Positions 34,751 through 53,988 of a stretch of DNA of 58,978 nt are shown piece after piece. The DNA lies in the NCBI GenBank assembly GCA_026387575.1, contig JAPLLK010000064.1, positions 1 through 58,978 of the forward strand, written 5' to 3'. Under the pieces are notes generated by a model, which made no database searches, was not told the DNA's origin, and saw only the letters and a program-made list of their open reading frames with translations. The position numbers and the translations under genes are program-made. Within the stretch, counting starts at the first letter, position 1. Each line of letters begins with the position of its first letter. This DNA comes from Nitrospirota bacterium. GTDB lineage: Bacteria > Nitrospirota > Thermodesulfovibrionia > Thermodesulfovibrionales > UBA1546.

Positions 34751-36187
34751 TTAAAACCTTGCTGCTATACGGGCAACATTAATGACTTTTGAAGGTAGCA
34801 CTCCGATAACCAGGACTGCTATAACTGTTATCGTAAGCGCAAGGGCTATTCCGGGAGAGACAGAAAGCTGCACTGCGGCCTTAGGTTCTTTCATGTACAT
34901 ATACATTACAATCCTCAGATAAAAATACGCTGATATTGCGCTGAATATAACCGCAATCACAGCAAGCCACGTATATCCTGCGCTTATTGCGCTCATAAAG
35001 ATATAGAACTTACCCATAAACCCTGCTGTAGGCGGAATCCCTGTGAGAGAAAACATAAATACAAGCATCAGCGCAGCAGCCAATGGATGTGTCTTTGCGA
35101 GCCCCTCATAATCAGAGATGTCATCTCCCTTAAATCCCTCTGACCTGAGCATAATCACAACTGCAAATGCGCCTATGTTCATGAATGCATAAATAAACAG
35201 ATAATTCAGAACACTTGCCGTGCCCTCTGATGTCCCTGCAATTATTCCAAGAAGCACATAACCTGCATGCGCTATTGAAGAATACGCAAGCATCCTTTTT
35301 ATGTTTATCTGTGAAATTGCGGCTATATTCCCGACGGCCATTGTGAGTATCGCTATCGGGATAAGAATGCCTGTCCATTCAATTCTTGCCGCACCGAACG
35401 CTGTCATAAAAACCCTTCCAAGAACTGCAAACCCTGCTGCCTTGGGCCCTACTGACATAAATGCAGTAATGGAAGTAGGCGAGCCCTCATAAACGTCAGG
35501 CGCCCACATGTGGAAAGGAACAGCGGCTATCTTGAATGAGAACGCCACTGCAAACATAGTCATTGAAAGCGTTAAGACGGGATTCCCTGAAAGTCCATTG
35601 ACGGATATGTAAGAAGATATCGCCTTGAGGTCTGTTGTGCCTGTAAGCCCGTATATCAGTGATGTGCCATAGAGCAAAAATGCGGAAGCGAACGCTCCGA
35701 GGAGAAAATACTTCATTGCGGCTTCGTTAGACTTTATGTCATGTCTCAAGAACCCCGCAAGCACATAGGTGCTCAATGCCATAAGTTCAAGTCCAAGATA
35801 GAGGGTTATCAGGTCTCCTGCCGACGCCATAAGCATCATGCCGAGAGTGGAAAGCAGTATAAGGCTGTAATATTCCCCGAAATTAACTTTTTCAATTGCA
35901 ATGTATTTCACTGATATAAGAACAGTAAGAACAACATTCAGCATAAAGATAAGTTTGAAGAATAGGCTATAGTTATCCGCTATAAACATTCCGTTAAATG
36001 TGATTCCTGTAGAACCGACAAGCAAATATGTAACTGCTGCAACACTGACTATGCTAAGAAATGCAATTGTCTCTTTTCTTTTAATCACAAGGTCTGCAAG
36101 CAGAATTAGAAGAGCAAGGCACGTCATTACAATTTCAGGCATAACAGGCCCAAGGTCAGGCATTGAAAATCCAGTAAGATTCGTCAT
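34751..36187 (-). CDS. nuoN: NADH-quinone oxidoreductase subunit N
   Basis: EAAMKYFLLG, FKIAAVPFHMWAPDVYEG and KRMLAYSSIAH. Confidence 0.96.
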   Translation of the reverse strand: MTNLTGFSMPDLGPVMPEIVMTCLALLILLADLVIKRKETIAFLSIVSVAAVTYLLVGSTGITFNGMFIADNYSLFFKLIFMLNVVLTVLISVKYIAIEKVNFGEYYSLILLSTLGMMLMASAGDLITLYLGLELMALSTYVLAGFLRHDIKSNEAAMKYFLLGAFASAFLLYGTSLIYGLTGTTDLKAISSYISVNGLSGNPVLTLSMTMFAVAFSFKIAAVPFHMWAPDVYEGSPTSITAFMSVGPKAAGFAVLGRVFMTAFGAARIEWTGILIPIAILTMAVGNIAAISQINIKRMLAYSSIAHAGYVLLGIIAGTSEGTASVLNYLFIYAFMNIGAFAVVIMLRSEGFKGDDISDYEGLAKTHPLAAALMLVFMFSLTGIPPTAGFMGKFYIFMSAISAGYTWLAVIAVIFSAISAYFYLRIVMYMYMKEPKAAVQLSVSPGIALALTITVIAVLVIGVLPSKVINVARIAARF

Positions 36188-37707
36188 TTGATAATCTCCA
36201 GAATATTTTTTGCAACGCCCACTTCATGCATGCTTCCTGAATTTACCCTCTCAAGCAGATGTTTTACAGACTCATGCATGAAACCGAGAAATGCATTCGG
36301 ATAAATTCCGATCCAGAATATCAGTATAATCATCGGCAGAAGTGTGATTATTTCCCTTAAATTAATATCTGCGAGCCCTGCAACCTTCTGGTTTGTTTCC
36401 ATGAAAAATACCCTCTGATAAAGCCAGAGCATATAACCTGCGCCTATGATTACCCCTGTTGCCGCAAGCACGCCTGCCCATTGATTCGCCTTGAACCCTC
36501 CAAGGATAATCAGGAACTCTCCTATGAACCCGTTTGTCGCAGGAAGGCCTATTGATGCAAGCGTAAACACCATAAACAAAGACGCATACACAGGCATTGC
36601 AGATGCAACTCCTCCGTAATCAGAAATCTGTCTTGTATGAGTCCTGTCATAAATCATTCCGACGCTTAAGAATAATGCACCTGTGACTACTCCATGGTTT
36701 ATCATCTGAAGGATTCCGCCCTCCATGCCCTGCGAATTTAGGGCAAAGATTCCAAGTGTTACAAAACCCATGTGGCTGACAGAGCTGTATGCAATGAGCC
36801 TTTTCAGGTCTGTCTGTGCGAGACATATTACTGCGCCGTAAATTATCGCTATAACAGAAAGCGTAAGCATCACAGGCGTCATTGCCCTTGATGCATCGGG
36901 GAATAACGGCAATGAGAACCTAATAAAACCGTAAGCGCCCATCTTGATAAGCACAGCGGCAAGAATAACGCTGCCTGCTGTCGGAGCCTCTGTATGCGCA
37001 TCAGGAAGCCATGTGTGCACCGGGAACATCGGAACCTTAACGGCAAAGGCTGCAAAGAACGCCCATAAGAGCCAGATCTGTAATTGATACGGATATGTTT
37101 TTGTCATTAGTTCAAGTATGTCAAATGTCCTGCCAGCCTGATAATAAAGAACGATTATCCCGATAAGCATAAGCAAACTTCCAACAAGCGTGAAGAGGAA
37201 GAATTTCACCGCAGCATAAATCCTGTTACTCCCGCCCCACACGCCTATCAAGAGATACATAGGGATTAGCATTGCCTCCCAGAAGAGATAGAAGAGCATA
37301 AAATCCAGTGAACAGAAAACGCCTATCATTGCGCTTTCCATTATCAGAATGGAGATATAAAATTCTTTTGTCTTTGCCTTTATAGAATTCCATGAGATAA
37401 GAACGCAGAGTATTGTAATAAGGGTTGAGAGAAGGACAAACAGAATGCTTATGCCGTCAATGCCGAGACTGTAATTAATATTCAACGAAGGAACCCATGC
37501 ATGTTTTTCTGTAAACTGCATAAGGTGCGTGGACTTATTGAACTCCGTGAACAAAGGAATTGAAATTATAAAAACCGTTATGCTCACAATAAGGCTAACC
37601 CATTTTATAAGGTTCTCATTAGACCTGCTTATCAGGAGCAAAAGCACCGCACCTGCAATCGGCAGGAATATCAATGTGCTCAGTATCGGAAAACCATTAA
37701 GGTTCAT
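36184..37707 (-). CDS. nuoM: NADH-quinone oxidoreductase subunit M
   Basis: FWEAMLIPMY, VKVPMFPVHTWLPDAHTEAPT and KRLIAYSSVSH. Confidence 0.96.
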   Translation of the reverse strand: MNLNGFPILSTLIFLPIAGAVLLLLISRSNENLIKWVSLIVSITVFIISIPLFTEFNKSTHLMQFTEKHAWVPSLNINYSLGIDGISILFVLLSTLITILCVLISWNSIKAKTKEFYISILIMESAMIGVFCSLDFMLFYLFWEAMLIPMYLLIGVWGGSNRIYAAVKFFLFTLVGSLLMLIGIIVLYYQAGRTFDILELMTKTYPYQLQIWLLWAFFAAFAVKVPMFPVHTWLPDAHTEAPTAGSVILAAVLIKMGAYGFIRFSLPLFPDASRAMTPVMLTLSVIAIIYGAVICLAQTDLKRLIAYSSVSHMGFVTLGIFALNSQGMEGGILQMINHGVVTGALFLSVGMIYDRTHTRQISDYGGVASAMPVYASLFMVFTLASIGLPATNGFIGEFLIILGGFKANQWAGVLAATGVIIGAGYMLWLYQRVFFMETNQKVAGLADINLREIITLLPMIILIFWIGIYPNAFLGFMHESVKHLLERVNSGSMHEVGVAKNILEIIK

Positions 37708-37751
37708 GCCTTGCCCCGCAAGAATTTGGATTCGTTTTGTAGTTTATTGCT

Positions 37752-37833
37752 GGCATTCCAGCTTGATGGGAATCCTTCTTCGGAAAGATTCTGGACTGAT
37801 CCCCGACGGAGCGGGGACAAGAGCCAGGATGAC
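37752..37833. repeat. REP-like palindromic element between nuoL and nuoM
   Basis: GGCATTCCAGCTTGATGGGAATCC...GATTCTGGAC[TGATCCCCGACGGAGCGGGGAC]AAGAGCCAGGATGAC, nested hairpins. Confidence 0.55.
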
Positions 37834-37923
37834 AAAGATGAAGGCTGTTTAGTCCAGATACCTCGAAGTTCTATTTTATAGTGGTTTATGTTTCTATTTT
37901 GCATTTTTAATTTTCCCTGCTCC

Positions 37924-39843
37924 TTACCTTAATAACATTACTGCCATTATTATCAACACGCCCAACGCCATTATTGCTGCATAGCGCTGTAACAAACCTG
38001 TCTGAACTTTCCTCAGAATCCGGCTGAATTCTCCGATCCCTTTTGGAATACCATTAACAATCGCCTCGATAATTTTCGCATCCGTAACCCCAATGAGTAT
38101 ATTCTTAGCTGTCCAGATTGTTGGCCGCACGATTATAAAACTGTAAAGTTCATCCACATAGTATTTATTCCAGAGGACTTTATATGTGGCATTAAATTTC
38201 TGCGCAAGCATAACAGGAATATCAGTCTTTACAAGATAGAATAATGCGGCCAGTCCTACTCCTGAAAAACCTGCGATTATTGATATCGCCATTACCAGCC
38301 ATTCCTCTGCGTGTGTGCCGTGTGCTTCGGGATGCCCAAGGACAGGGGTTAAAAATTCCGTGAAATGCTCTCCACCTCCAAGCAGATGGGGAATCCCAAT
38401 CCAGCCTGATGCAACAGCGCCGATGCAGAGAATAATCAATGGTATTGTCATAGCCTTTGGAGATTCATGGAGATGATGTTCCTGTTCGTACGTGCCCCGG
38501 AATTTTCCGTGGAACGTGAGGAATATAAGCCTGAATGAGTAGAAGGCTGTAAGAAACGCAACTACAGTCCCGATAGCCCAAACGAATTTCCCCACAGGAC
38601 TCTGTCCTGAATACGCAAGCCAGAGTATTTCATCCTTGCTGAAGAATCCTGCAAAGCCGGGCACGCCTGCAATGCTCAATGATGCAAAAAGCATTGTCCA
38701 GTATGTAATTGGCATGTATTTCTTAAGGCCGCCCATCTTCTGAAGGTCAAGCTCTCCTGACATTGCGTGCATTACGCTCCCTGCGCATAGGAAAAGAAGG
38801 GCTTTAAAGAATGCATGTGTGTAAAGATGGAACATTCCTGCGGTGTAAGCTCCGACTCCTGCCGCAAGGAACATATAGCCGAGTTGGCTGATGGTTGAAT
38901 ATGCGATAATCCTTTTTATATCATTCTGGACAAGGCCGATAGTCGCAGCAAATAGTGATGTTATAGCCCCTGTTAATGCGACAATCATTAGTGCAGTTTC
39001 AGAAAGGCTGAATATCGGACTGCACCTTGCAACGAGGAAAACACCTGCTGTGACCATTGTCGCCGCGTGTATCAGCGCACTTACAGGTGTGGGGCCCTCC
39101 ATTGCATCAGGAAGCCATACATGAAGCGGCATCTGCGCTGACTTCCCAATTGAGCCGCAGAAAAGAAGAAGCGCAATCAATGTCATAAGATGCACGTCAT
39201 ATCCAAGGAAATTAATTGTTTGTACTGCAAAGACCTTTGCCTGTGAAAAGACAGGCTCATAATAAACGGTTCCGAATGTGAGGAATATCATTATTATTCC
39301 AAGACCAAAGCCAAAGTCGCCGAACCTGTTCACTATAAAAGCCTTTTTGCCTGCGTCAGAGGCTGGTTTCTTGTCAAAGTAATATCCTATGAGAAAGTAT
39401 GAACACAAGCCGACACCCTCCCACCCGAAATACAACTGGAGGAAGTTATTAGCCATAACAAGCATCAGCATACAGAAAGTAAACAGGCTGAGATATGCAA
39501 AAAAGCGGTAGTAGCCCTTGTCTCCTTGCATATACCCAACAGAATATATATGTATCAGGGCGCTGCAAGTTGTTACAACAACAAGCATGACTGCGGTAAG
39601 CTGGTCAATAAGAAAACCCACAGAGACTTTGAATTCGCCGGAAACAATCCATGAGTAGATGTCTTCATTTACAACCTTGCCTGACAGGACATCAAGCAGT
39701 GTTATTACAGTCACAACCCATGACCCGGCAACTGCAAGTATTGATACCCAGTGGGCATTATCCTTCAAATACTTCCTGCCAAAAAGAATATTTATCAAAA
39801 AAGCGGCAAGCGGCAGAAATGGTATTAACAAATAATTGTTCAT
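37924..39843 (-). CDS. nuoL: NADH-quinone oxidoreductase subunit L
   Basis: GWEGVGLCSY, NRFGD, KSAQMPLHVWLPDAMEGPTPVSALIHAATMV and HAFFKALLFL. Confidence 0.97.
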   Translation of the reverse strand: MNNYLLIPFLPLAAFLINILFGRKYLKDNAHWVSILAVAGSWVVTVITLLDVLSGKVVNEDIYSWIVSGEFKVSVGFLIDQLTAVMLVVVTTCSALIHIYSVGYMQGDKGYYRFFAYLSLFTFCMLMLVMANNFLQLYFGWEGVGLCSYFLIGYYFDKKPASDAGKKAFIVNRFGDFGFGLGIIMIFLTFGTVYYEPVFSQAKVFAVQTINFLGYDVHLMTLIALLLFCGSIGKSAQMPLHVWLPDAMEGPTPVSALIHAATMVTAGVFLVARCSPIFSLSETALMIVALTGAITSLFAATIGLVQNDIKRIIAYSTISQLGYMFLAAGVGAYTAGMFHLYTHAFFKALLFLCAGSVMHAMSGELDLQKMGGLKKYMPITYWTMLFASLSIAGVPGFAGFFSKDEILWLAYSGQSPVGKFVWAIGTVVAFLTAFYSFRLIFLTFHGKFRGTYEQEHHLHESPKAMTIPLIILCIGAVASGWIGIPHLLGGGEHFTEFLTPVLGHPEAHGTHAEEWLVMAISIIAGFSGVGLAALFYLVKTDIPVMLAQKFNATYKVLWNKYYVDELYSFIIVRPTIWTAKNILIGVTDAKIIEAIVNGIPKGIGEFSRILRKVQTGLLQRYAAIMALGVLIIMAVMLLR

Positions 39844-39847
39844 ATTT

Positions 39848-40150
39848 TCATCCCTTCATTTCGCTCATCTCATCCGCATGAACTGTGTCCTTGTTCCTGA
39901 ACAGCGCAATAATTATCGCAAGCCCTATCGCGGCCTCTGCCGCTGCGACAGTGATTATAAAGACCGCAAGAATCTGCCCTCTCATGTCCTGCAGGTAATG
40001 GCTGAATGCCACAAGGCTGATATTCACTGCATTCAGCAGAAGCTCTATTGACATGAACATTATTATGATATTCCTCCTTGTAAGGAATCCGAAGACTCCT
40101 ATCATAAAAACCACTGCGCTCAGCATCAGATACCAATTCAAAGGAACCAT
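39848..40150 (-). CDS. nuoK: NADH-quinone oxidoreductase subunit K
   Basis: [11 protein letters not shown] and [10 protein letters not shown]. Confidence 0.96.
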
Positions 40151-40665
40151 TATTTACTCCTCGTCTTTCTCTTTGCCAGGACTATTGCGCCTATAATCGC
40201 AACAAGCAGCACAAGAGAAGCTATTTCAAAAGGGAAAAGATAATCAGTGTATAAGAGTTTCCCCAGCGCCTTTGTATGAGTCTCCTGTTTTATAAATTCA
40301 ATTGAATATTTTCCGGCAGGCCCCGGCACAAAAGACCTTACCACACTCAAAACAATCACAAGCAAAGCCGTAGTTACAAAAAGTCCGGCGGGCCATGCGC
40401 CTATAAATCTTTTCACTTTAAGTTCCTCCCTAAGATTCAGAAAAAGCAAAATAAAAAGGAACAGCACGAGTATTGCTCCTGCATAAACTATAATCTGTAT
40501 TGCCGCGACAAACTCGGCGTTCAGGAACAGATAAAGACCTGCAATGTGGAAGAAAAGCAAAAGCATCCACATAACACTGTGCACAGGATTGCTTCTCGTA
40601 ACAACCAGCAGTGAAAAGATGACTATCGCAGAAGCGTAATATCCAAAAAATAATTCAGACAGCAT
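40150..40665 (-). CDS. nuoJ: NADH-quinone oxidoreductase subunit J
   Basis: [20 protein letters not shown] and [16 protein letters not shown]. Confidence 0.95.
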
Positions 40666-40736
40666 CCTTGCTCCGCAAAAATTCAAAATTCAAAGTTGAA
40701 AATTCAAAATAAATGAATTCCATAATTTTATACTTC

Positions 40737-41288
40737 TCATTTTTCATTTTTTGTTCTCCTGAATACCGCCTGCCCTTCATGCCCAGTGAAGTCCTCTGAT
40801 TTTGGCCTCCAGAAATCTCTGAAATATCTCCTGGCCTTCTCTCCTGTAAAATACTTATCCCAATTTGAAAGAAGTTTTTCTTTAGTCATATAAAACGGCT
40901 CTCTTGAATAATCCGAATATTCGTAATGCTCGCTCAATGTAATTGCGCCGAAAGGGCATGCCTCAACACAGAACCCGCAGTAAATACACCTGAGAACCTC
41001 TATCTCATACCTGTCCACAACCTTTGTATGGTCCTCGCCGTCTGAGGTGTAAATATATATGCACTTTGAAGGGCAGTAAGCTCCGCATAGACCGCAGCCA
41101 ACGCACTTCATCCTGCCATCTTCATCCTTTGCAAGCGCATGAAGCCCCCTGAAGCCGGGCTTAACAGGCCTTTTAACCTTTGGATAGCGCCTCGTCACAG
41201 CGGGTGTAAACATGCTCTTTAGCGTCAATGCAAGACCCTTCAGAATCTCTACAAAGAATATCGTCCTTATAAATTTTCTAACTGTCAT
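40737..41288 (-). CDS. nuoI: NADH-quinone oxidoreductase subunit I
   Basis: FRGLH and two CxxCxxCxxxCP motifs. Confidence 0.96.
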   Translation of the reverse strand: MTVRKFIRTIFFVEILKGLALTLKSMFTPAVTRRYPKVKRPVKPGFRGLHALAKDEDGRMKCVGCGLCGAYCPSKCIYIYTSDGEDHTKVVDRYEIEVLRCIYCGFCVEACPFGAITLSEHYEYSDYSREPFYMTKEKLLSNWDKYFTGEKARRYFRDFWRPKSEDFTGHEGQAVFRRTKNEK

Positions 41289-41309
41289 ATCGTTTTCTTG
41301 CCGGCATTA

Positions 41310-42362
41310 TTAAACCCATATTTTTATAAATCCTGTCAGCACTATATTGAACAGGGCTAATGGTATTAATATCTTCCACCCTATAGCCATAAGCTGGTCA
41401 TACCTGTATCTCGGGAAAGTCGCCCTGACCCAGTAATAAAAAAACATAAAGGCATAAACCTTTATCAGAAACCACACAATACCTGGCACATTCAGCAAGA
41501 AAGGCATTGCATCCATAATAAACTTCGGGATTGTCCACCCTCCTAAAAAACACAACGCTGCTATAGAAGACATTATCAGCATCGCTGTGTATTCGCCGAG
41601 GAAAAATAGTGCGAACCTGAATCCGCTGTATTCTGTAAAATACCCTGCAACAAGTTCGTTTTCAGCCTCCGGCAGATCAAAAGGGAGCCTGTTTGTCTCA
41701 GCAAATGCAGCCACAATAAATACAAAGAAACCTAAGAACTGAGGGATGGCAAACATGCCTGCAGGATGTTGTTGCTGCGCCCTGACAATATCGGACAGGT
41801 TCAGAGAGCTTGCCATCATCATAACTCCTACAAGGCTCAGTCCCATTGCAATCTCATAACTTATTACCTGTGATGCTGCCCTCAGTCCGCCAAGGAATGA
41901 ATATTTAGAGTTTGACGCCCACCCCGATAATATAATTCCATAGGCTCCGAGAGAAGACATTGCAAAAAGAAAAAGCAGGCCTATATTTATATCAGCTATC
42001 ACAAAGCCATCGAAAAACGGAAGCACAGACAATGACGTGAGAGCCGAAACCATGAATATGACAGGCGCAAGATAGAACAACGGCTTATCTGCATTCGCAG
42101 GTATAATGTCTTCCTTGAAAAAAAGTTTCACTCCGTCAGCAATCGGCTGTAAAAACCCATGCCAACCTACTTCAATGGGGCCAAGCCGTACCTGCATGTG
42201 GCCTATTACTTTGCGCTCCCAGTAAGTTGCATAAGCCACATGAAGAAGCGTTATGCCAAGAACAACAGCGATCTTTACGAGAATAATCCCAATATCTATC
42301 CCAAGCTTAATCATAGGGTTCATTCCAGCCGCATTACCTATAAACTGAAAAATGTCGTTCAT
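41310..42362 (-). CDS. nuoH: NADH-quinone oxidoreductase subunit H
   Basis: ERKV...RLGP, QPIADGVK, AETNRLPFDLPEAE and RATFPRYRYDQLM. Confidence 0.97.
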   Translation of the reverse strand: MNDIFQFIGNAAGMNPMIKLGIDIGIILVKIAVVLGITLLHVAYATYWERKVIGHMQVRLGPIEVGWHGFLQPIADGVKLFFKEDIIPANADKPLFYLAPVIFMVSALTSLSVLPFFDGFVIADINIGLLFLFAMSSLGAYGIILSGWASNSKYSFLGGLRAASQVISYEIAMGLSLVGVMMMASSLNLSDIVRAQQQHPAGMFAIPQFLGFFVFIVAAFAETNRLPFDLPEAENELVAGYFTEYSGFRFALFFLGEYTAMLIMSSIAALCFLGGWTIPKFIMDAMPFLLNVPGIVWFLIKVYAFMFFYYWVRATFPRYRYDQLMAIGWKILIPLALFNIVLTGFIKIWV

Positions 42363-45031
42363 AAGCCAGCCTTCTCTATAGCTACTGTATTCCCATCCAG
42401 AACAGAAGCCCTTGTAACAGGCTCTATATCATAGCCCATCAATCTGTATGCACTCTTGCCTTCAAAATTATTAGTGAGCATGACTGAAAAATTGTCTAAT
42501 GCTTTATCGATAACCACAGGCAGTTCAATTGAACCAATCTTTGTGGAAACCCTGACAACTTCACCCTCTTTAAAGGAAAGCGCCTTAGCTGTATCCGGAC
42601 TTATTCTTACAACAGCCTCAGGATATATCTTCACAAGTGCAGGGGCCCTTCTGCTCAAAGTGCCTGAATGGAATAGCGGCCTCTCAATCCTAAGATAAAG
42701 TTTCCCGTTAACACTAAGTCTCTCTGCATTATGCACCTGAATCTCTTCCATCCCATCCCTTAATGGTTCTCCTTTATAAGGATAGATTCCCCCACCCTTT
42801 TCTATATCTTCATATGTAAGGTCTTTATGTAACGGAGATGCCTTGCAAATCTCATTGAATATATCTTCAGCATTGGAGTAATCGAACTTCTTACCCATAT
42901 TCCTTGCGATCTCAGAAATTATCCTCCAGTCCTCCATCCCATTCCCGTTCACTGCCTTTCTCAATCTTTGAATCCTTCTTTCCATATTTGTGAATGTCCC
43001 GTCTTTTTCAGCCCAGCTCAGTGCAGGCAGAACAACATCGGCAAGCTTTCCTGTTTCTGTAAGGAATATATCCTGAACAACAAGAAACTCAATATTTCTA
43101 AGCGCTGCTTCCACTGTCTTAGAATCAGGAAGGTTATAGACAGGGTTTTCACCCATTACATACATCGCTTTCAGAGAGCCGTTCTTTGCAGCATTAACCA
43201 TCTCAAATATCGTGAGCCCTGTTTTTCCTGGGAGTTCGCTTTCCCATATACTTTCGTATCTCCTTTTGGATTCAACATAGGACACAGGTCTATATCCCGG
43301 CAGTATATCAGGCGCGCATCCCATATCAAGAAGGCCCTGCTCATTCGCCCTATCAGAGAGGAGATAGAGCCTGCCGTTAATAAGATAGTTTATTGCTGAT
43401 AGGAGCAAGAGCTTGTAGCTTGCTCCATTGCTCTGTGCCGTCTCCTTACCTATTACTATTGATGGGTTTGTGGATTCTGAAAGGATATTCAAAAACTCAT
43501 TAAAGTCTTTCTCTTCGATTTTGCAGATATTCTTTACATCCTCGATGGAAGTGCTTATATCCTTTATCTTTGCCTCAAGTTTAGAATTTGCATCCGAAAG
43601 TCTCTTCTTATTTTTTAATACAGTAACAATACCTTCAAGCAGAATATCTTCTGTGTACAAGACTGGTACAAGCTTTTGTGGACTGAAATATTCAAGACCT
43701 TTAAAATTTCCGATTGTGAGTATGTTACCACCATTTCTTGAACATGCCCTTATCTGAAGCCCGAGGATAGGATTTACTGTTGTTGGGTCCCCGCCAATCA
43801 CAAATACAAGGTCAGAATTTGAAAGACCTGATATTATGTTTGCTGTTGCACCCTGCCCAAAGATATTCTCTATAAAACTCTGGGCGCCTGCAAAGCCTGT
43901 CCTTGCAGTGCTGTCAATGTTATTTGTCCCGAGCGCAACTCTCATAAATTTCTGGAATATATAATTGTCCTCATTCGTGCATCTCGGTGAGGCAATGCCA
44001 GCTATTGCAGGGTTGCCATACTCCTCTTTGATCTCTGACAGTTTTTTTGCAACAAGGCTTATGGCCTCTTCCCATGTCGCTTCTCTGAAGAGTTCGGAGA
44101 TTACCCCCCCTTGACTCCCCCCCTTATCAAAGGGGGGCTGGGAGAGTGTTGACTCCTGACTCCCGACTCCTGACTGTGTCTTGGGAGCTATCCTTACAAG
44201 AGGTGTTGTCAGTCTCTCTTTGCTTCCTACAAACTCATATCCGAATCTCCCCCTCGTACAGAGAAGCCCATTATTAACAACAGAACCGATTCTGGGGACA
44301 ACCCTCTTAATCACATCATCGCGAACCTGAACAATAAGAGTACATCCAACCCCGCAATAGGGACAGATTGTCTCTATCTCATTCTCCATCTGCCATGGCC
44401 TGAAGCTGTGCCTGTGAAGCCTTGACATAATTGCTCCGACAGGGCATACAGAGATGCAGTTCCCGCAGTATTCGCAATCATATTTGCCGCCCGAGAAAGG
44501 CTCAATATGAGAATGGCCTCCCCTGCTTATAACGTCAATCGCCGAGGCGCCCTGAACCCCCTCGCACATCCTGACGCATCTGGTACACATAATACATCTT
44601 TCCATGTTGCGAACAATAATCGGGTCTTCGAGGCTTTCAGGGACTTTTCTCTTCTTTTCTTTATATCTACCCTTTGCAGGCCCGTATTTTCCTACAAGGT
44701 TCTGCAATTCGCACTCTCCTGCCTTATCGCACACAGGACAATCAAGCGGATGGTTAATAAGCAGAAATTCGAGGATGCCTCTCCTGACATTGGCTGTCTG
44801 CTCTGTCTCTGTCCTGACAACCATTCCGTCAGCAACCATAAAAGTGCAAGCTGTCTGCAACCTCGGCATCTTCTCAATCTCAACAAGGCACAATCTGCAA
44901 CCGCCGTATCTTTCAAGCTGTTCATGCCAGCAGAGCGTAGGTATCTTTATGCCTGCGGACCTTGCAGCCTCAAGCACAGTGACAGGTTTTTCTAATTTAA
45001 TCTCTTTGCCGTCAATGGTAACTGTAATCAT
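42359..45031 (-). CDS. nuoG: NADH-quinone oxidoreductase subunit G (long molybdopterin-oxidoreductase-fold form)
   Basis: CRLCLVE, HPLDCPVCDKAGECELQ, RCIMCTRC and CPYCGVGC; lies between nuoF and nuoH. Confidence 0.9.
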   Translation of the reverse strand: MITVTIDGKEIKLEKPVTVLEAARSAGIKIPTLCWHEQLERYGGCRLCLVEIEKMPRLQTACTFMVADGMVVRTETEQTANVRRGILEFLLINHPLDCPVCDKAGECELQNLVGKYGPAKGRYKEKKRKVPESLEDPIIVRNMERCIMCTRCVRMCEGVQGASAIDVISRGGHSHIEPFSGGKYDCEYCGNCISVCPVGAIMSRLHRHSFRPWQMENEIETICPYCGVGCTLIVQVRDDVIKRVVPRIGSVVNNGLLCTRGRFGYEFVGSKERLTTPLVRIAPKTQSGVGSQESTLSQPPFDKGGSQGGVISELFREATWEEAISLVAKKLSEIKEEYGNPAIAGIASPRCTNEDNYIFQKFMRVALGTNNIDSTARTGFAGAQSFIENIFGQGATANIISGLSNSDLVFVIGGDPTTVNPILGLQIRACSRNGGNILTIGNFKGLEYFSPQKLVPVLYTEDILLEGIVTVLKNKKRLSDANSKLEAKIKDISTSIEDVKNICKIEEKDFNEFLNILSESTNPSIVIGKETAQSNGASYKLLLLSAINYLINGRLYLLSDRANEQGLLDMGCAPDILPGYRPVSYVESKRRYESIWESELPGKTGLTIFEMVNAAKNGSLKAMYVMGENPVYNLPDSKTVEAALRNIEFLVVQDIFLTETGKLADVVLPALSWAEKDGTFTNMERRIQRLRKAVNGNGMEDWRIISEIARNMGKKFDYSNAEDIFNEICKASPLHKDLTYEDIEKGGGIYPYKGEPLRDGMEEIQVHNAERLSVNGKLYLRIERPLFHSGTLSRRAPALVKIYPEAVVRISPDTAKALSFKEGEVVRVSTKIGSIELPVVIDKALDNFSVMLTNNFEGKSAYRLMGYDIEPVTRASVLDGNTVAIEKAGL

Positions 45032-45043
45032 GTTTTGGTTCCT

Positions 45044-45128
45044 GTCATTACACGTCCCGATAAATATCGGGGCGAGGTAATCTCAAAAAAGATTGCCGCG
45101 TCGGTCGTATCGACCTCCTCGCAATGAC
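45044..45128. repeat. REP-like palindromic element between nuoF and nuoG
   Basis: GTCATT...TAATCTC-AAAAAA-GATTGC...CCTCGCAATGAC. The terminal CCTCGCAATGAC also occurs at 22681-22692. Confidence 0.6.
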
Positions 45129-45168
45129 CTCTAAAACTTATTTTATTCCCACTCTTCATTCCCAACTA

Positions 45169-46440
45169 TTAAACTCTCAAACTTTTAAATTTACACTTCC
45201 CATCTTTTATATGTTCCTCAAACTCATTCCTGAAATGTTTTATGAAATTTTGGACAACAGATGCTGCTCCGTCTCCAAGCGGGCAGAAAGTCTTGCCAAG
45301 CATATTTCCTGAAACAGAAAGCAGAAGCTCTATGTCTCCTTCCACGCCTTCGCCGTTTTCTATCCTTTCAAGAATACTTCTCAGCCAGCCTGTGCCTTCA
45401 CGGCATGGCGTGCATTTGCCGCATGATTCATGCTCAAGGAATTTCAGCGCCCTATGGCAGACTTTTACAAGGCAGACTGTTTCGTCCATCACAATCACAG
45501 CGCCTGAGCCAAGCATGCTCCCGTGCTTTGGCATACTTACAAAATCCATAGGACAGTCTATCTTGTCCGCAGGAAGCACCGGAGTCGTAATCCCGCCGGG
45601 AAGCACAGCCTTAAGATTCTTCCCGGCCTTAATTCCTCCGCAGTGCTTATAGATTATGTCGCGCAGGATTGTACCCATAGGCAGTTCATAAACACCGGGT
45701 TTTTCAACATGACCGCTTACACAATACAGCTTTGGCCCCGGGCAATCGGAACTCCCGATCTTTGAATATTCTTCATCGCCAATTTCTATAATAAGGGGAA
45801 TATTTGACAGCGTCTCTACGTTATTGATAACAGTAGGTTTCGCAAAAACTCCCACGTTTACAGGAAACGGGGGCCTCATCCTCGGCTGTCCCTTATCTCC
45901 CTCCAGTGATTCTATTAAAGCGGTTTCTTCACCGCATATGTATGCGCCTGCGCCGCGATGAACAGCGAGATGAAACTTTATGCCCTTCCCTAAAATATCA
46001 TCACCGAGAAAATTGTTTTCATATGCCTGAGCGATTGCCTTGTTCAGGATATGATATGCGCCAGGATACTCGCCTCTCAGGTATATGTATCCGTACTGTG
46101 CTCCGATCGCGTAACCTGCTATGACCATTCCTTCTATCAGAAGATGGGGATTTTTCTCAAGTATAGGCCTGTCCTTGAAGGTGCCTGGCTCTCCTTCATC
46201 TGCATTGCATAGGAGATATTTCGGAAATTTCGTATCAGCGTAGGCAAACGACCACTTCATTGCAACAGGAAAACCTGCTCCGCCCCTTCCCCTTAACCCT
46301 GCTTTTTTCACTATATCAGTTATGTCGAGCGGCTTGTAGTCAAACGCTTTCAGAAGACTCCTGTATCCGCCAATTTTTTTATACTCGTTAATATCGGCTG
46401 AATTCGGGTTTTCTATGTTTTTTAATAAAACCTTTTCCAT
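45169..46440 (-). CDS. nuoF: NADH-quinone oxidoreductase subunit F
   Basis: GLRGRGGAGFP, NADEGEPGTFKDR, YICGEETAL and ESCGKCTPCREG. Confidence 0.97.
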   Translation of the reverse strand: MEKVLLKNIENPNSADINEYKKIGGYRSLLKAFDYKPLDITDIVKKAGLRGRGGAGFPVAMKWSFAYADTKFPKYLLCNADEGEPGTFKDRPILEKNPHLLIEGMVIAGYAIGAQYGYIYLRGEYPGAYHILNKAIAQAYENNFLGDDILGKGIKFHLAVHRGAGAYICGEETALIESLEGDKGQPRMRPPFPVNVGVFAKPTVINNVETLSNIPLIIEIGDEEYSKIGSSDCPGPKLYCVSGHVEKPGVYELPMGTILRDIIYKHCGGIKAGKNLKAVLPGGITTPVLPADKIDCPMDFVSMPKHGSMLGSGAVIVMDETVCLVKVCHRALKFLEHESCGKCTPCREGTGWLRSILERIENGEGVEGDIELLLSVSGNMLGKTFCPLGDGAASVVQNFIKHFRNEFEEHIKDGKCKFKSLRV

Positions 46441-46494
46441 AACTTTAAACTTTTAATAGAACTTCATAAGTGAAACCACGGTTTGTCATCCCTC

Positions 46495-46959
46495 CTATTT
46501 GTATTTCTCCAGTATTTCCTCTATATACTTTTCCGTGAGATTCTCATAAAAATCATCATCCACAAGCATTGCCGGAGCTGTGCCGCATGCGCCTATGCAT
46601 TCCATAATGACAAGTGAAAACCTTTTGTCAGGAGTTGTCCCTCCGGTTTCAAGCCCGTATTTATTCTTAAGGAAGTCTGACAGTTTCTCTGCGCCGAGTA
46701 TCATGCATGAGACATTTGTGCATAGCTGGACAATATGCCGCCCCATGGGCTTATGCTTATACATTGCATAAAATGTCCCCACTCCTCTTGCAATTGCCCT
46801 TGGAACACCGAGAGCATCTGAAACAGCTTCATATGCATCAGCTCCGAGATACCCGAATTCTCTCTGTGCAATATAAAGAGCAGGCAATAGCGCAGCGCTC
46901 GCATCAGGATACTTCTGCCTTATCTCATTTAGTTCTTTTATCGCTGCTTTGCTCAACAT
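46495..46959 (-). CDS. nuoE: NADH-quinone oxidoreductase subunit E
   Basis: CTNVSC and ECIGACGTAP. Confidence 0.95.
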   Translation of the reverse strand: MLSKAAIKELNEIRQKYPDASAALLPALYIAQREFGYLGADAYEAVSDALGVPRAIARGVGTFYAMYKHKPMGRHIVQLCTNVSCMILGAEKLSDFLKNKYGLETGGTTPDKRFSLVIMECIGACGTAPAMLVDDDFYENLTEKYIEEILEKYK

Positions 46960-46987
46960 AGATTCACTCAGACTGCTTGCCTCCTTG

Positions 46988-47455
46988 TTATTTGCTCTTC
47001 CTGAACATCATGTGCATAAGGTCCATATATTCTCTATTAGTTTTTCTGACTATCCCTGTAAGGTGCATTGCAAGTCTGCGTAATATCTTGAAGGCCATGG
47101 GAAGATTTGAATGCACAATATTATCAAAAGCTGATTTCCCTATCTGTATGACCCTTGACTTTTGTTCTGCGATAATTGTTGCGTCATGTTTGATTTCATC
47201 AAGGAATGACATAATACCGAATATGCCTCCCTTTTCAAGTGTTATAATCCTATATTGGTCGCCTTCTCCGGTCATCTTATTTACACCCACCTTGCCGCTT
47301 ACTACAATATAAAGCTCACTGCCGCTGCTTCCTTCCTTAAAGATTATGTCACCTGCCTCGTATTCCTTTACCTGTACTGACCCCTTCAGCATCTCTATTT
47401 CAGAGTCGTCCAGGTCACTGAAGAAATATATTTCGCGTAACTCTTTATTTTCCAT
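46988..47455 (-). CDS. Stand-alone cyclic nucleotide-binding domain protein
   Basis: FFSDL, AGDIIFKEG, LYIVVSGKV, GGIFGIMSFLD...HDATIIA; no HTH domain; AGGAGG RBS. Confidence 0.88.
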   Translation of the reverse strand: MENKELREIYFFSDLDDSEIEMLKGSVQVKEYEAGDIIFKEGSSGSELYIVVSGKVGVNKMTGEGDQYRIITLEKGGIFGIMSFLDEIKHDATIIAEQKSRVIQIGKSAFDNIVHSNLPMAFKILRRLAMHLTGIVRKTNREYMDLMHMMFRKSK

Positions 47456-47471
47456 AAGCCCTCCTTTTTAA

Positions 47472-48662
47472 TTACCTATCACATTCTCCCAAGACTATAT
47501 CAATAGTCCCTATGTTTGCGATAACGTCTGCGACAAATCCACCCGCGCATAATTTCGGCAGAATTGATGCATGAACAAAAGAGGGCGCTCTCACTCTCAT
47601 CCTGTATGGCTTGCCGGTGCCGTCGCTTACAAAATAAAATCCGAGTTCCCCTCTGGGGACCTCTGTAGCAGAATATATCTCTCCTTCAGGAGCAATAGGA
47701 CCTTTTGTTATGAGAACAAACTGATGTATGAGATGTTCTATGTCCTTTAAGACCATATCTTTAGGAGGCAGGGTGAACTTGGGAGAGGCAGCCATTACAG
47801 CTCCTGTTGGCAGTTTTTCAATGCACTGTTTAATTATCCTGTTTGCCTGCTTCATCTCGCCAATTCTGACAAGATACCTGTCATAGCAATCTCCGTTTTT
47901 CCCCAAAGGGACATCGAACTCAACCCTGTCATACGCATCATAAGGAGCATGTTTTCTTACGTCATAGTTCACGCCTGAGCCCCTCAGCATACCGCCTGTA
48001 AGCCCCCAGTTTACGGCCTCTTCTGCGGAAATAACACCTATGCCGACTGTCCTCTTCTTCCAGACCCTGTTTTCAGTAACAAGTGTTTCATAGTCATCCA
48101 TTCTGTCAGGAAACTCAAGAACAAACTCGTAGAGTTCATCAAGAAATTCCTGTGAAATGTCGTTCCGTACACCGCCAATCCTCGGATAACTTACCGTAAG
48201 CCTCGCCCCGCACAATGTTTCAAAAAGGTCAAGAATGCGCTCTCTTTCCCTGAATGCATACAAAAATGGAGTTGTTAGGCCTATATCAAGGACATGTGTC
48301 CCAAGCCATATAATGTGGCTTGAAATCCTTCCCATTTCAGCGACCATGGTTCTGATAAACTTTGCCCTTTCAGGCGCTTCAATGCCAAAAATTTTTTCAA
48401 CAGCATTTACATAGCCGACCTTGTTGTTCATGGATGATATGTAATCGAGTCTGTCGGTTAGGGGAAGCGCGGAAAAATATGTCCTGTTTTCTCCGAGTTT
48501 TTCTATCCCCCTGTGGAGATAACCAACATGAGGAGTGCATTTAATAACAGTCTCGCCGTCAAGGGTAAGCACAAGCCTAAGAACCCCATGGGTTGCCGGA
48601 TGCTGGGGCCCCATGCTGATGGTTAATTCTCTTGTCTCAAATGTCTTTTCTATCTGTTCCAT
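47472..48662 (-). CDS. nuoD: NADH-quinone oxidoreductase subunit D
   Basis: [26 protein letters not shown] and DIVLGECDR. Confidence 0.97.
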
Positions 48663-48733
48663 AATTTTTAGTGCATAGCCTATCAGTACAATAGCGCAGC
48701 AGTTAGAAAACTGCGGTTCTGCTGCTCTATGGG

Positions 48734-49267
48734 CTATTCATGCCATTCGAAATCTTTAAATCTCTTTGCCTTGTCAAGAACTGCTCTAAACCCTGACCAT
48801 TCCTTCTCTGGCCCCTTCACAGGATAATCCTTTCTCAGTGGATGCCCTTCCCAGTCCTCAGGCATAAGGACTCTCCTGAGATCAGGATGCTCTTTAAAAA
48901 TAATCCCGAACATGTCATAACATTCCCTTTCATGCCAGTTTGCTCCGGCCCATACAGCGGTAACAGAATCAATCTCAAGACTGCTCTCAGGCACTGCTGC
49001 CTTTAACCTTATTGCATGACAGCGCTTTATAGAATAAAGATGATAGACAATCTCAAACCTTTTTTCTTTCTTTCCCGCATAATCCGCACCGCATATATCA
49101 ACAAGATAGTCAAAGCAAAGATCAGGGGCGTCGTGGAGATGCCTGCATATTTCAAGGATTCTGTCTTTCTTTAATGTAACAGCGGCCTGTTCCCTGAATT
49201 CCTTTACCTCAAGGACTTCATCCGGGAATTTCTCCTTTATCTTGTCTGCAATCTCTAATGGCTTCAT
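48734..49267 (-). CDS. nuoC: NADH-quinone oxidoreductase subunit C (alternative start 49282)
   Basis: [35 protein letters not shown]. Confidence 0.95.
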
Positions 49268-49791
49268 CTCCACCTGCTCCATCTGAAGCGCTCTTTCTTT
49301 ATCTTTTCCTGAAGCTTTATTATCCCTTCAAGCAGAGCCTCCGGCCTCGGAGGACAACCCGGAATATAAACATCAACCGGCAGGAAACTATCACATCCCT
49401 GCACTGTACTGTAGGTATTGAATATGCCTCCTGAACATGCGCAGCTCCCCATTGAAATAACATATCTTGGTTCTGGCATTTGGTCATAGACCCTTCTAAC
49501 AATTTCTGACATCTTTTTCGTTACAGTGCCTGCGACAATCATGAGGTCGGCCTGCCTTGGAGATCCCCTGAAGATAACCCCCATCCTGTCCAGGTCATAG
49601 TGTGACGATCCCGCCGTCATCATTTCAATGGCTCAGCATGCAAGCCCAAAGGCCACGGGCCATAAGGACGAGCTTCTTCCCCAGTTGATGAGCTTGTCCA
49701 TTGAGGTGATAACGATATTAGGCGACAATATTTTTGTGCCTTTTTCAACCTCAACAAGCGATGGAGAAATTGTGTTTTCAATCAATCCCAT
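49264..49791 (-). CDS. nuoB: NADH-quinone oxidoreductase subunit B with in-frame TGA (probable selenocysteine) at codon 53
   Basis: From ATG 49791: ...[26 protein letters not shown]...[12 protein letters not shown]...MGSCA...PGCPPRPE. The TGA is at 49635-49633. Confidence 0.93.
49603..49619 (-). promoter_or_regulatory. Candidate bacterial SECIS hairpin
   Basis: TGACG-GCGGGAT-CGTCA; the apical loop starts with G, 18 nt after the TGA. Confidence 0.55.
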
Positions 49792-50153
49792 TTAAATGCC
49801 TCCTTTTCCCATGCATAGACATAGCCGACAAACAGTATCACTATAAAAATAATCATCTCAATAAATGCATATAGTCCAATCCTGTCAAAGACAACAGCCC
49901 AGGGGTAAAGGAAAATAGCCTCGACGTCAAAGATAACAAAGAGCATAGCAACAATATAGAACTTAACAGAGAACCTGTATCGCGGCTCTCCGACAGGCAG
50001 GTTGCCTGATTCATAAGGCATAAGTTTTTCAGGGTATGGCCTTTTCAGTCTGAAAAGTTCACCGATTAATAAGGCGCCCATTCCAAAGACCGTTGCGACC
50101 ATCAAAAATATAAGAACAGGCAAATAATCCGAAGGCAAATAAGTTCCTGGCAT
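49782..50153 (-). CDS. nuoA: NADH-quinone oxidoreductase subunit A
   Basis: PYESG and [22 protein letters not shown]. Confidence 0.96.
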
Positions 50154-51411: not shown

Positions 51412-53988
51412 TTAATCCTTACCCTTTTGTTCCAATTTATCCTCAAGGTCGCTTCCGAAAACTTCCTTTATCAGCCTTCCATCTCTCAAATATTGAAAAA
51501 ACCCTGTATAACTATTGGGACTTAAAAAGTGGAAAATATATTTCTGCTTAATTCCTGATTCCTCAAGCTCTTTATTTAGGTCTGAGAAGTGCTGCCTTGT
51601 CCATCTTAACTTTGCTTTGTTTTCATCAGAGTCATCACCATCTGACTTTACTTCCACAACTACAATATAGTCTATTCCGCCATGATGAATTTTGATGAAA
51701 AAATCAGGATTAAATTGTTGGTTTTTTTGAGGATGTTCACCTTTTCGCCATGAATACTCAACGCTGTAAAATCCTTGATCCCTTGACTTTATCCATGAAT
51801 CAATCTTTTCTGCATTGTCTTTCTTGCATAAATGTTCAACAAACCTTCTTTCAGGTTCTGCCCGTGTAAAAATAATACCAAGAGGGGTTTTAAAAAGGTA
51901 TTGGTTAATTTCTTTCTCGGCGCTCTTAGGCAGACTTTCATCGGTTTTTATTTCTTCGAGGATATCTTTTATTTCCTCCAGCAGTTCGTCGTCAAAGCTA
52001 TCTGCATAAAAAACTGTCGCATTATGTCTCAGATTTCCAACAGCCATAGATTCTTTATCCATATTCGCAGTCAAGATAGGCTGGGGTTTGGTGACCTTTC
52101 TTACATTTACTATGGTCTTTCCCTTTTTTCTTAAAAGCGTTCCGAATGTCTGAAGTATTCTCTGCCTGTTTTTCTCTACAAGCCGATCACCTTTAATTCC
52201 CCTCCTATCCATAGATGTCCTGATGATTTTTCTTATCTCATCCTTAGGAGGCAATTCATTTTTAGTATATTCGCCTTCAGGCAGTTTCAGAACACGCCCC
52301 TCCCACTCCCTCGTTTTAAATTCCTCGTAAATCTTATTTACGATTTCATCAACGCTGTAAGTGTTGTATTCTATTAATGTATTTTTTGCATAAACCTCGC
52401 CTGCAAGACTGGTATATTCTGTGCCTTTTTCATCATCCTCTACCTGCGATATAAGCTCAATAAATCCTTTTGTGTAGTCAAAGACCTCTGTATCACGGCT
52501 TGCCTCTTTCTCCTGAGGCTCTTTGTCATAGTTGATGTTGCAAAGGGCAAAATTGTATTTTGCCCTATCGCCTTCCTTTAGGACAGAGCTTGTTAATTTC
52601 ATCTCTATTTCTAGGATTTCATCTACAAGTCCTTTTATATTCCGGCTCCATGCGTCATGATTGAATACCTTTACTCTTGGCTGCGGCGTCTGGTATTCAG
52701 GCGGCACTCTAAGACCTCTTCCTAAGACCTGTGCTATTAATAACTTTGAATTAAATGCCCTATCTTTCCACGGAACGATCTGGAAAACATTATTTACATC
52801 CCACCCCTCAGTAAGCATAGACACAGATACAATCCACTCTGTTGAATCGTCTTTGTCATCAACATTTTTGAGCCTTGCCGCATTTGCCCTATGCTCCTGC
52901 GCAGAGGTAACTATCAAAACCTTCTTCTCAACTTCCCCCCTTGGCAGAGATTCTTTTTTTGATAAAAATCCCATGAGGTCTTCAGTCAATCTTTTTGCAT
53001 TTGTGATATCGTTTGTAATAAGGATAGTTAAGGGCTTTATTTTTCTGTATTTATTTTGATTCTCAATATGATTATCATAAATTTTCTGAAATTTTTCAGG
53101 GTCACCGATGCTTTCATCCTTGCTTACATAATCCACCATCTTGACTACTTTGTCATCTACTGCCTGTCTCAAAGAATATCTGTAAATGACATCGTTAAAA
53201 TACTCGTCTTCAATATATGCCGTTCCCGTGAAACCGACCATATACATAAAGTTGTAATCCGCACTCAAAAGGAAATCTTTCCATTTCTTAATATCCTGAC
53301 TTTCTCTGTCTCTGCCTGAAACTTTATTGTAGACATGGTGAACCTCATCACTTAAAACCAAGACCTTTGCCCCATTGCTCATAAGGCTGTCCTTTATGGA
53401 TGAACCTGTTTTTTCATAAACTGCATGGATATTTTCAACGCAAATATCACCGTCTTTTATAGTGCTGTTTGCGTCTATAATACGGGGATTCTTATATGCT
53501 GCATCTTTAGGGATTGTCTGTTTTAATCTGCTATCTCCGCTTAATGAAATAAACTTCTCCATAAGTCCCTTCTCTATAGTCAGGGATGGGCATAGCACAA
53601 GAACCTTGTCCACAAGTCCTAATCCGAGCATTATCTGGGCAATGCCATAAATAACATAGCTCTTGCCCGTACCTGTGGCTAAGTCAATGGTTGCAGAAAG
53701 CTTGTTGGACAGTTGTAAATGATGAAAATACTCGTTTATATCTCTATATCTGGTGTGCAGTTCGGGATTTTTATCCCAGTTTTCCCTGACCAGATCCTCA
53801 ATTGATTTATACCTGCCTGATGCGAGATAAATAATAACATTCTCTATAGCTTCACGCTGATACTGCCTGTCTCCACAGAGGACATCAAGGAATCTATCCC
53901 ATCTTGAAAGATCAAGCCTTGCGGGATCATAAGATTTGCTGACCTCTAAAACAAGGTCTTTTGTGTTATAAGTCTTTATCTCAATCAT
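51412..53988 (-). CDS. Type III restriction helicase/endonuclease (Res)
   Basis: LATGTGKS, DEVHH, TGT, LTEGWD, QVLGRGLR and FNPDF...VEVKS. Confidence 0.9.
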   Translation of the reverse strand: MIEIKTYNTKDLVLEVSKSYDPARLDLSRWDRFLDVLCGDRQYQREAIENVIIYLASGRYKSIEDLVRENWDKNPELHTRYRDINEYFHHLQLSNKLSATIDLATGTGKSYVIYGIAQIMLGLGLVDKVLVLCPSLTIEKGLMEKFISLSGDSRLKQTIPKDAAYKNPRIIDANSTIKDGDICVENIHAVYEKTGSSIKDSLMSNGAKVLVLSDEVHHVYNKVSGRDRESQDIKKWKDFLLSADYNFMYMVGFTGTAYIEDEYFNDVIYRYSLRQAVDDKVVKMVDYVSKDESIGDPEKFQKIYDNHIENQNKYRKIKPLTILITNDITNAKRLTEDLMGFLSKKESLPRGEVEKKVLIVTSAQEHRANAARLKNVDDKDDSTEWIVSVSMLTEGWDVNNVFQIVPWKDRAFNSKLLIAQVLGRGLRVPPEYQTPQPRVKVFNHDAWSRNIKGLVDEILEIEMKLTSSVLKEGDRAKYNFALCNINYDKEPQEKEASRDTEVFDYTKGFIELISQVEDDEKGTEYTSLAGEVYAKNTLIEYNTYSVDEIVNKIYEEFKTREWEGRVLKLPEGEYTKNELPPKDEIRKIIRTSMDRRGIKGDRLVEKNRQRILQTFGTLLRKKGKTIVNVRKVTKPQPILTANMDKESMAVGNLRHNATVFYADSFDDELLEEIKDILEEIKTDESLPKSAEKEINQYLFKTPLGIIFTRAEPERRFVEHLCKKDNAEKIDSWIKSRDQGFYSVEYSWRKGEHPQKNQQFNPDFFIKIHHGGIDYIVVVEVKSDGDDSDENKAKLRWTRQHFSDLNKELEESGIKQKYIFHFLSPNSYTGFFQYLRDGRLIKEVFGSDLEDKLEQKGKD

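Follow-up and report, generated by a model that had tools for sequence, protein, structure and literature searches.

The question raised by this locus is whether a stop codon inside a core gene of respiratory complex I is read as selenocysteine (Sec). The window, i.e. the whole stretch of 58,978 nucleotides analysed here (contig JAPLLK010000064.1 of assembly GCA_026387575.1), comes from a Nitrospirota bacterium of the class Thermodesulfovibrionia and the order Thermodesulfovibrionales. It carries a nuoB gene with a TGA at the position of the second of the two tandem cysteines that bind Fe-S cluster N2. In complex I, this cluster forms the terminal redox centre and passes its electrons directly to quinone.

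The nuoA-N operon, as delimited by NCBIfam matches, occupies positions 34751-50153 on the minus strand. All of its 14 nuo genes, namely: nuoA, B, C, D, E, F, G, H, I, J, K, L, M and N, give full-length matches, and only nuoB contains an internal stop. A first-pass annotation of this DNA had described an otherwise intact operon of 14 genes; all 14 nuo genes are whole, but the cluster holds 15 ORFs, the additional one being a 155-aa ORF with a cyclic-nucleotide-binding domain at 46988-47455 (minus strand), between nuoD and nuoE. This ORF has weak NCBIfam matches to CRP-like and cNMP-binding proteins, is unusual in nuo clusters and may have a regulatory role. Six of the 15 cluster genes, nuoB among them, end in TGA; thus, the codon is not reassigned here.

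The nuoB gene (NuoB/Nqo6/PSST homologue) lies between nuoA and nuoC at 49264-49791 (minus strand) and comprises 175 codons when its one internal TGA is read through, the terminal stop being TGA as well. The read-through product matches both NF005012 (2.9e-77, 257.9 bits; cut-off 116) and TIGR01957 (1.1e-73, 245.9 bits; cut-off 142.7) over their full length. The in-frame TGA, the candidate Sec codon, is codon 53 at 49635-49633 (minus strand), in the setting ...FGLAC-TGA-AIEMM..., and directly follows the TGC of codon 52 (49638-49636), the codon of the first tandem Cys. In 17 Cys-Cys orthologues, the residue aligned with the TGA is the latter Cys of the CC pair; the TGA thus stands exactly where the first-pass annotation had placed it. 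To our knowledge, Cys occupies this site in every NuoB characterised so far. The motifs FGLAC-x-AIEM, GSC and GCPP are kept, and C52, position 53, C117 (GSC) and C146 (GCPP) are taken by us, from motif homology, to be the N2 ligands; this four-ligand set is complete only if TGA53 is decoded as Sec or Cys. The ligation assumed is of the type described in PMC8042128, in which N2 is held by four Cys of the NuoB-type subunit, a strained tandem pair included, and according to which this unusual strained ligation has long been linked to the special redox behaviour of N2. The window protein thus resembles canonical Cys-type NuoB/Nqo6/PSST (NDUFS7) in its profile match, its position between nuoA and nuoC and its motifs, and differs from it in having TGA rather than TGC/TGT as the second ligand codon, followed by a SECIS-like hairpin.

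The TGA recurs in contigs from public runs (X1, X2 and X6) that belong to three studies. It is found in X1 (record 6; 293 nt, no differences from the window), in X2 (record 15; 89 nt, no differences) and in X6 (record 17, spanning the whole 537 nt). One of these runs may be the source of the MAG itself, which still leaves at least two independent assemblies with the TGA. X6 and X1 contain it as the sole or predominant form and X2 in about equal share with a TGC strain, while run X9 contains TGC relatives only. Thus, the TGA is a natural allele that coexists with a Cys allele and not an assembly error. TGC or TGT as the true base had been named beforehand as the outcome that would speak against Sec; the contigs of all three studies carry TGA.

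The near-identical TGC strain of X2 (record 14) differs from the window at three positions in 217 nt (49614, 49633 and 49653) and has the state of the relatives at each. All three changes are non-synonymous (Ala47, Sec53 and Ala60) and fall within 14 codons. Such a cluster could reflect co-adaptation or a recombination patch; we do not rely on co-adaptation, since a short recombination patch or neutral change looks alike. On the branch leading to the window, nuoA-D have accumulated 41 synonymous and 11 non-synonymous changes, and on the sister branch 42 and 10; in nuoB alone, the window branch has 16 and 3. By these counts, nuoA-D show no sign of relaxed constraint on the window branch.

The genome to which the window belongs (1.63 Mb, 92% complete) encodes selA, selB, one tRNA-SeC and a selD that has an in-frame TGA of its own. 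All of the genes selA, selB, selC and selD, which the first-pass annotation had proposed to look for, are therefore accounted for. It had further held that a lack of Sec machinery combined with Cys in close orthologues would argue against its reading, and here the machinery is present. TGA-interrupted frames were sought by a coding-potential scan and then compared with Pfam, which identified five further such genes in known selenoprotein families, namely: a DsbC-like UxxC protein, a DsbA-like UxxC protein, SelD and two FdhA-like proteins. They are located on contigs C22, C27 (two genes), C48 and C23.

The SECIS-like hairpin lies 3′ of the TGA at 49622-49601 (minus strand). Its core is formed by TGACG (49619-49615), the loop GCGGGAT (49614-49608) and CGTCA (49607-49603). 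This is the hairpin that had been pointed out from the sequence at the outset, with the first G of the loop 18 nt past the UGA, and both details are borne out. A G.U closing pair and two extra pairs beyond a bulged A extend the core to 8 bp, of which 6 bp make up the upper stem, and reduce the loop to the 5 nt CGGGA; the distance between UGA and loop is then 19 nt (18 nt with the G.U pair open). The hairpin, with -5.6 kcal/mol, is the minimum free energy (MFE) fold of the 40 nt starting at the UGA. When folded within 100 nt, it has pair probabilities of 0.70-0.75 for the core, 0.49 for the closing G.U and 0.39-0.48 for the two outer pairs.

The bacterial SECIS model of PMC13188914, as set out in the legend to its Fig. 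2, has a loop of 3-9 nt, an upper stem of 4-16 bp, at least one G at loop position 1 or 2, a distance of 16-37 nt from the UGA to the apical loop, and an MFE of -7.5 kcal/mol or lower. The window hairpin falls within this description with respect to its loop (5 nt, or 7 nt without the G.U pair), its stem (6-bp upper stem, plus 2 bp past the bulged A), its loop G (position 2 of CGGGA or position 1 of GCGGGAU) and its spacing (18-19 nt), but its energy of -5.6 kcal/mol is weaker than the threshold. An Rfam scan of 49500-49700 with E-values up to 10 returned no SECIS family and only three snoRNA matches at chance level. Four other SECIS hairpins of this genome, which belong to FdhA-like and thioredoxin-fold genes, have their loops at 19, 19, 22 and 23 nt from the UGA, the 19-nt spacings being those of the FdhA-like gene on C48 and the DsbA-like gene on C27. 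Thus, the UGA of nuoB sits at a spacing that the SelB of this organism already uses.

Comparison with the fdhA, selD and DsbA-like UxxC genes reveals the same layout: a UGA aligned with the Cys of homologues and a 3′ hairpin whose loop has a G at position 1 or 2. The hairpins of these genes, however, have 7-9 contiguous bp, whereas the stem in nuoB is shorter and weaker (6-8 bp, -5.6 kcal/mol). In addition, the Sec of these proteins is a redox-active or Mo/W-binding residue, while that of NuoB would be an Fe-S cluster ligand.

NuoB was searched for in 40 relatives and then in all 317 genomes of the order, 286 of which gave a match. Among the first 150 of the matches listed, at least 48 contain one in-frame TGA. 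In each of the 49 TGA-bearing orthologues that were fetched, the TGA is located at the first tandem Cys (GLA-TGA-TGY-AIEM; UC forms hereafter), and two more found later bring the number of related genomes with TGA at the codon equivalent to codon 52 to 51. The TGC-TGA order is unique to the window in this set (the 49 fetched orthologues plus the window). It should be noted that the UC genomes are related to one another, such that the counts do not represent independent events; they are nevertheless distributed over five or more families of the order.

A window-like peptide, MMT[T/A]GSSHY, and the hairpin of the window accompany the TGA in 34 of the 49 UC forms; the other 15 combine the peptide MMAVYASHN with another hairpin in the equivalent location. 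In the 34 forms, the four codons that make up the stem (Thr, Thr, Ser and Ser) have a synonymous entropy of 0, and the Gly codon in the loop is variable. The same four stem codons have a synonymous entropy of 1.25-1.92 in the 17 Cys-Cys orthologues. Over the rest of nuoB, the mean synonymous entropy is similar in the two groups (1.23 in the 34 UC forms vs. 1.17 in the 17 Cys-Cys forms). All five core pairs of the hairpin are found in only two of the 17 Cys-Cys forms, both from the genus of the window. This absence of synonymous variation in the stem codons of UC forms only points to selection at the RNA level that is tied to the presence of the UGA, as predicted for a working SECIS. There is thus strong support, from comparative sequence data, for NuoB in this order often being a selenoprotein with a dedicated SECIS. 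The UC hairpins have energies of -6.5 to -8.0 kcal/mol, and a threshold of -7.5 kcal/mol therefore fails to separate even these constrained hairpins.

The window nuoB shares with the UC forms the gene, its place in the operon, the hairpin UGACG-(A/G)CGGGNU-CGUCA and a genome with Sec machinery. It retains every stem pair of the UC-type class-A hairpin (UGACG-NCGGGNU-CGUCA), and the first base of its loop is G, as in two UC forms (L028 and L134). It differs in having TGC at the first tandem codon and the Sec codon one position downstream, i.e. Cys-Sec instead of Sec-Cys, with a UGA-to-loop spacing of 19 nt vs. 22 nt in the UC forms. The orthologue comparison that had been suggested at the start therefore has two sides: orthologues with TGA exist and show a hairpin-specific synonymous constraint, but the close ones have their TGA at the first Cys or are Cys-Cys.

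In a tree built from 3.8 kb around nuoB, the window is the sister of G001 (support 99/98), and the clade also holds G009 and G010; all three of these genomes are Cys-Cys. The adjoining clade is a pair of one UC and one Cys-Cys form, and another UC/Cys-Cys pair lies nearby. Such mixed pairs indicate that Sec and Cys forms of NuoB interchange often. The TGC-TGA of the window is a single C-to-A step from the TGC-TGC of its neighbours, and the Cys-Cys gene of G001 (L008) still has every pair of the hairpin.

Within the class, a pattern search found TGA at the second tandem codon in two of 390 genomes, namely: the window genome and a second genome, G306. The tally is one Cys-Sec and one Sec-Sec genome vs. 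51 verified UC genomes. An additional case, L267, is a lone metagenome contig from JGI that was retrieved with a pattern combining TGY-TGA and a class-A hairpin; since the pattern itself demanded the hairpin, its presence in L267 is no extra evidence. The NuoB of L267 (minus strand, around 2438-2959) has TGC TGA in an otherwise intact frame, is 67.5% identical to that of the window at the nucleotide level and 70% at the amino acid level, and is followed downstream by intact frames of the size of nuoC and nuoD.

G306 is the genome closest to L267 (90% amino acid identity); here both tandem codons are TGA, and the same hairpin lies downstream. Its NuoB is encoded at 161-682 (minus strand) of the locus L302 (G306:C117:1-2182). 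Two adjacent TGAs that fall exactly at the two ligand codons, in a relative of a contig with TGC TGA, are hard to attribute to chance nonsense. The two codons are a candidate for a pair of Sec ligands of N2 that depend on a single SECIS. G306 has a selD with an in-frame TGA (Sec-type); selA and selB were not found in this assembly, which is 63% complete, such that their absence proves nothing.

Outside the class, with one genome per species, two NuoB with Cys-TGA were identified in MAGs of two other phyla: L165, labelled Candidatus Binatus, and L183, labelled Tectomicrobia. They are the two NuoB among 43 matches to the Cys-TGA NuoB-context pattern, and the same two were recovered among 30 matches to a looser pattern. 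Both genomes have selB; selA was not found in the Tectomicrobia genome (G318), which in an incomplete assembly proves nothing. As a control, a pattern with a Glu-to-stop change three codons downstream was run against the same collection and yielded one NuoB (L247) in 40 matches. In L247, from a MAG labelled Gemmataceae, the Glu codon of ...CCAI-E-MM... is replaced by an in-frame TAG, apparently a plain nonsense change or an error. Isolated nonsense alleles in MAGs are thus about as frequent as the two Cys-TGA cases from outside the class. Among the 40 relatives of G318 that were searched, the nearest is Cys-Cys and the TGA of L183 is absent throughout, and the hairpins of L165 and L183 resemble those in GC-rich Cys-Cys relatives. 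In view of the control, the unshared TGA and these hairpins, L165 and L183 lend weak support to Sec at the second position. Overall, four cases of TGA at the second codon have a genome attached, L267 being left out of this tally as a lone contig; three of these genomes (window, Binatus and Tectomicrobia) have selB, and G306 has a Sec-type selD.

The window genome also contains a partial NuoB-like paralogue at a contig edge (L268; G000:C72:2-301, the NuoB-like match at 5-292), with 48% identity to residues 68-162. Relatives have full-length NuoB paralogues of about 170 aa, some with internal stops, e.g. at G010:C150 (one TGA) and G025:C1:608639 (TGA and TAA). The paralogue may belong to a second complex-I-like module or a hydrogenase-type module.

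Taken together, these data make it probable that UGA-53 of the window nuoB encodes Sec at the second tandem ligand of N2 and that the gene is a rare positional variant of the Sec-NuoB family. The first-pass annotation had proposed Sec insertion at this TGA, and the Sec machinery, the independent contigs, and the TGA and hairpin constraint in orthologues all argue in its favour. According to this model, SelB with Sec-tRNA(Sec) would bind to the 49622-49601 hairpin when the ribosome is positioned at the UGA, 19 nt before the loop. In the resulting full-length NuoB, a selenolate would replace the thiolate of the second tandem ligand of the [4Fe-4S] cluster N2, the reducer of quinone. Selenium would then ligate N2, the properties of the cluster, such as potential, strain or oxygen tolerance, might be changed, and the enzyme might depend on selenium.

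The hairpin itself would be the SECIS that serves the UC-type orthologues throughout the order. Since Cys-Cys neighbours still carry it, one C-to-A change would suffice to put a Sec codon one position downstream of that in the UC forms and within reach of the SECIS. An alternative route would lead from Sec-Cys via Sec-Sec (TGA TGA, as in G306) to Cys-Sec. A broader proposal of 'ligand hopping' could, in our judgement, equally well prove right or wrong: selection may keep selenium on N2 and not at a given ligand position, with one SECIS serving a UGA at either or both of the tandem codons. To the same even degree of belief, single-base changes may take lineages from one form of NuoB to another, be it Sec-Cys, Sec-Sec, Cys-Sec or Cys-Cys.

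The main competitor of Sec at position 53 is a recent nonsense allele, which we consider unlikely but worth weighing seriously. In this case, a TGC-to-TGA change in a Cys-Cys lineage would end NuoB after 52 residues, with re-initiation possible at Met57/58; the 14-subunit complex I would be inactive or dispensable in the strain, and the hairpin would be a relic of a UC-type SECIS. The phylogenetic setting agrees with such a change, given that Cys-Cys is the form of the nearest relatives (G001, G009 and G010), that G001 still has every hairpin pair, and that the single C-to-A step separating the alleles is the same as that of a nonsense mutation. A TGC strain co-occurs in X2 with differences at only 3 of 217 positions, the control scan demonstrates that at least one MAG (L247) has a plain nonsense change in this region of NuoB, and another complex-I-like enzyme, to which the partial paralogue on C72 may belong, might compensate for the loss. 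Against Sec at position 53 count, in addition, the rarity of TGA at the second codon, which is restricted to the window genome (G000) and G306 among the 390 genomes of the class, the lack of any FGLAC end among 32 short N-terminal NuoB proteins in the protein database, and the hairpin, which at -5.6 kcal/mol misses the threshold of the SECIS model and matches no Rfam family. A loss of NuoB, however, fits poorly with a TGA that is dominant or sole in the contigs of two further studies, and with 14 nuo genes that have no other lesion and no excess of non-synonymous changes. It also leaves to coincidence that selB (three genomes) or a Sec-type selD (one) accompanies each of the four second-codon TGAs with a genome, and it is difficult to reconcile with TGA TGA in G306 and TGC TGA in L267, i.e. 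adjacent chance hits at ligand codons in two relatives.

Read-through of UGA-53 that does not involve selenium is less probable still and, in our estimate, improbable. Leaky decoding of UGA is established in bacteria, and a near-cognate Trp or Cys tRNA, or a Cys-charged tRNA(Sec), could yield low amounts of full-length NuoB with Cys or Trp at position 53. Such a mixed product is compatible with our results, and UGA-to-Cys read-through had been raised as an option from the start. It would, however, leave unexplained why the hairpin pairs are kept and why the cases lie in genomes with Sec machinery; moreover, Trp is unable to ligate N2, and TGA serves as an ordinary stop in six of the 15 operon genes. 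A sequencing or assembly artefact with TGC or TGT as the true codon has only a very slight chance of being correct: MAGs do contain single-base consensus errors, but this TGA was assembled independently in runs of three studies (X1 record 6, X2 record 15 and X6 record 17).

It had been suggested that similar cases might already be reported in other anaerobes. Full-text literature searches, covering the main text of papers available without subscription, turned up no report of Sec-NuoB. Likewise, the selenoprotein catalogue tables of a 2026 and a 2022 review list neither NuoB nor any PF01058 entry; the same tables include NADH:ubiquinone oxidoreductase subunit E of the Rnf/Nqr family. We thus found the Sec-NuoB family, comprising the UC type and the second-Cys variant, in no published catalogue, which is not to say that it is unpublished. 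A close parallel, among selenoproteins whose Sec is proposed to bind metal or Fe-S centres, is the (2Fe-2S)-binding, CopZ-like family, which the catalogue table of PMC13188914 lists with two forms, GxUC and CU. Like NuoB, this family would have Sec in place of a cluster-binding Cys and adjacent UC and CU variants within one family. It differs in fold and in cluster, and the two residues of the NuoB pair ligate a single [4Fe-4S] cluster, located at the quinone site of an energy-converting enzyme.

If Sec is indeed inserted at these positions, natural forms of complex I that carry selenium at either tandem position, or at both, would be site-specific probes of N2 ligation. A core respiratory enzyme would join the selenoproteome, and energy conservation in these anaerobes would be tied to the supply of selenium. 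Ligand hopping, if it occurs, would furnish natural complex I variants with selenium at defined N2 ligand positions, together with a selenium-dependent respiration.

A practical aspect concerns annotation. When the 52-aa N-terminal piece of the window NuoB was compared with the protein database, 32 short proteins were retrieved, of which 31 end in FGLA, as UC-type genes would give, and one is a longer fragment; none ends in FGLAC, and gene callers may fail to call or store pieces of the latter kind. The 31 N-terminal fragments indicate that gene callers split TGA-bearing nuoB genes, such that many MAGs may be credited, wrongly, with a broken complex I. Elsewhere in the window, an 858-aa ORF at 51412-53988 (minus strand), upstream of lpxK, has weak matches to restriction-endonuclease/helicase families and is unrelated to the TGA of nuoB.
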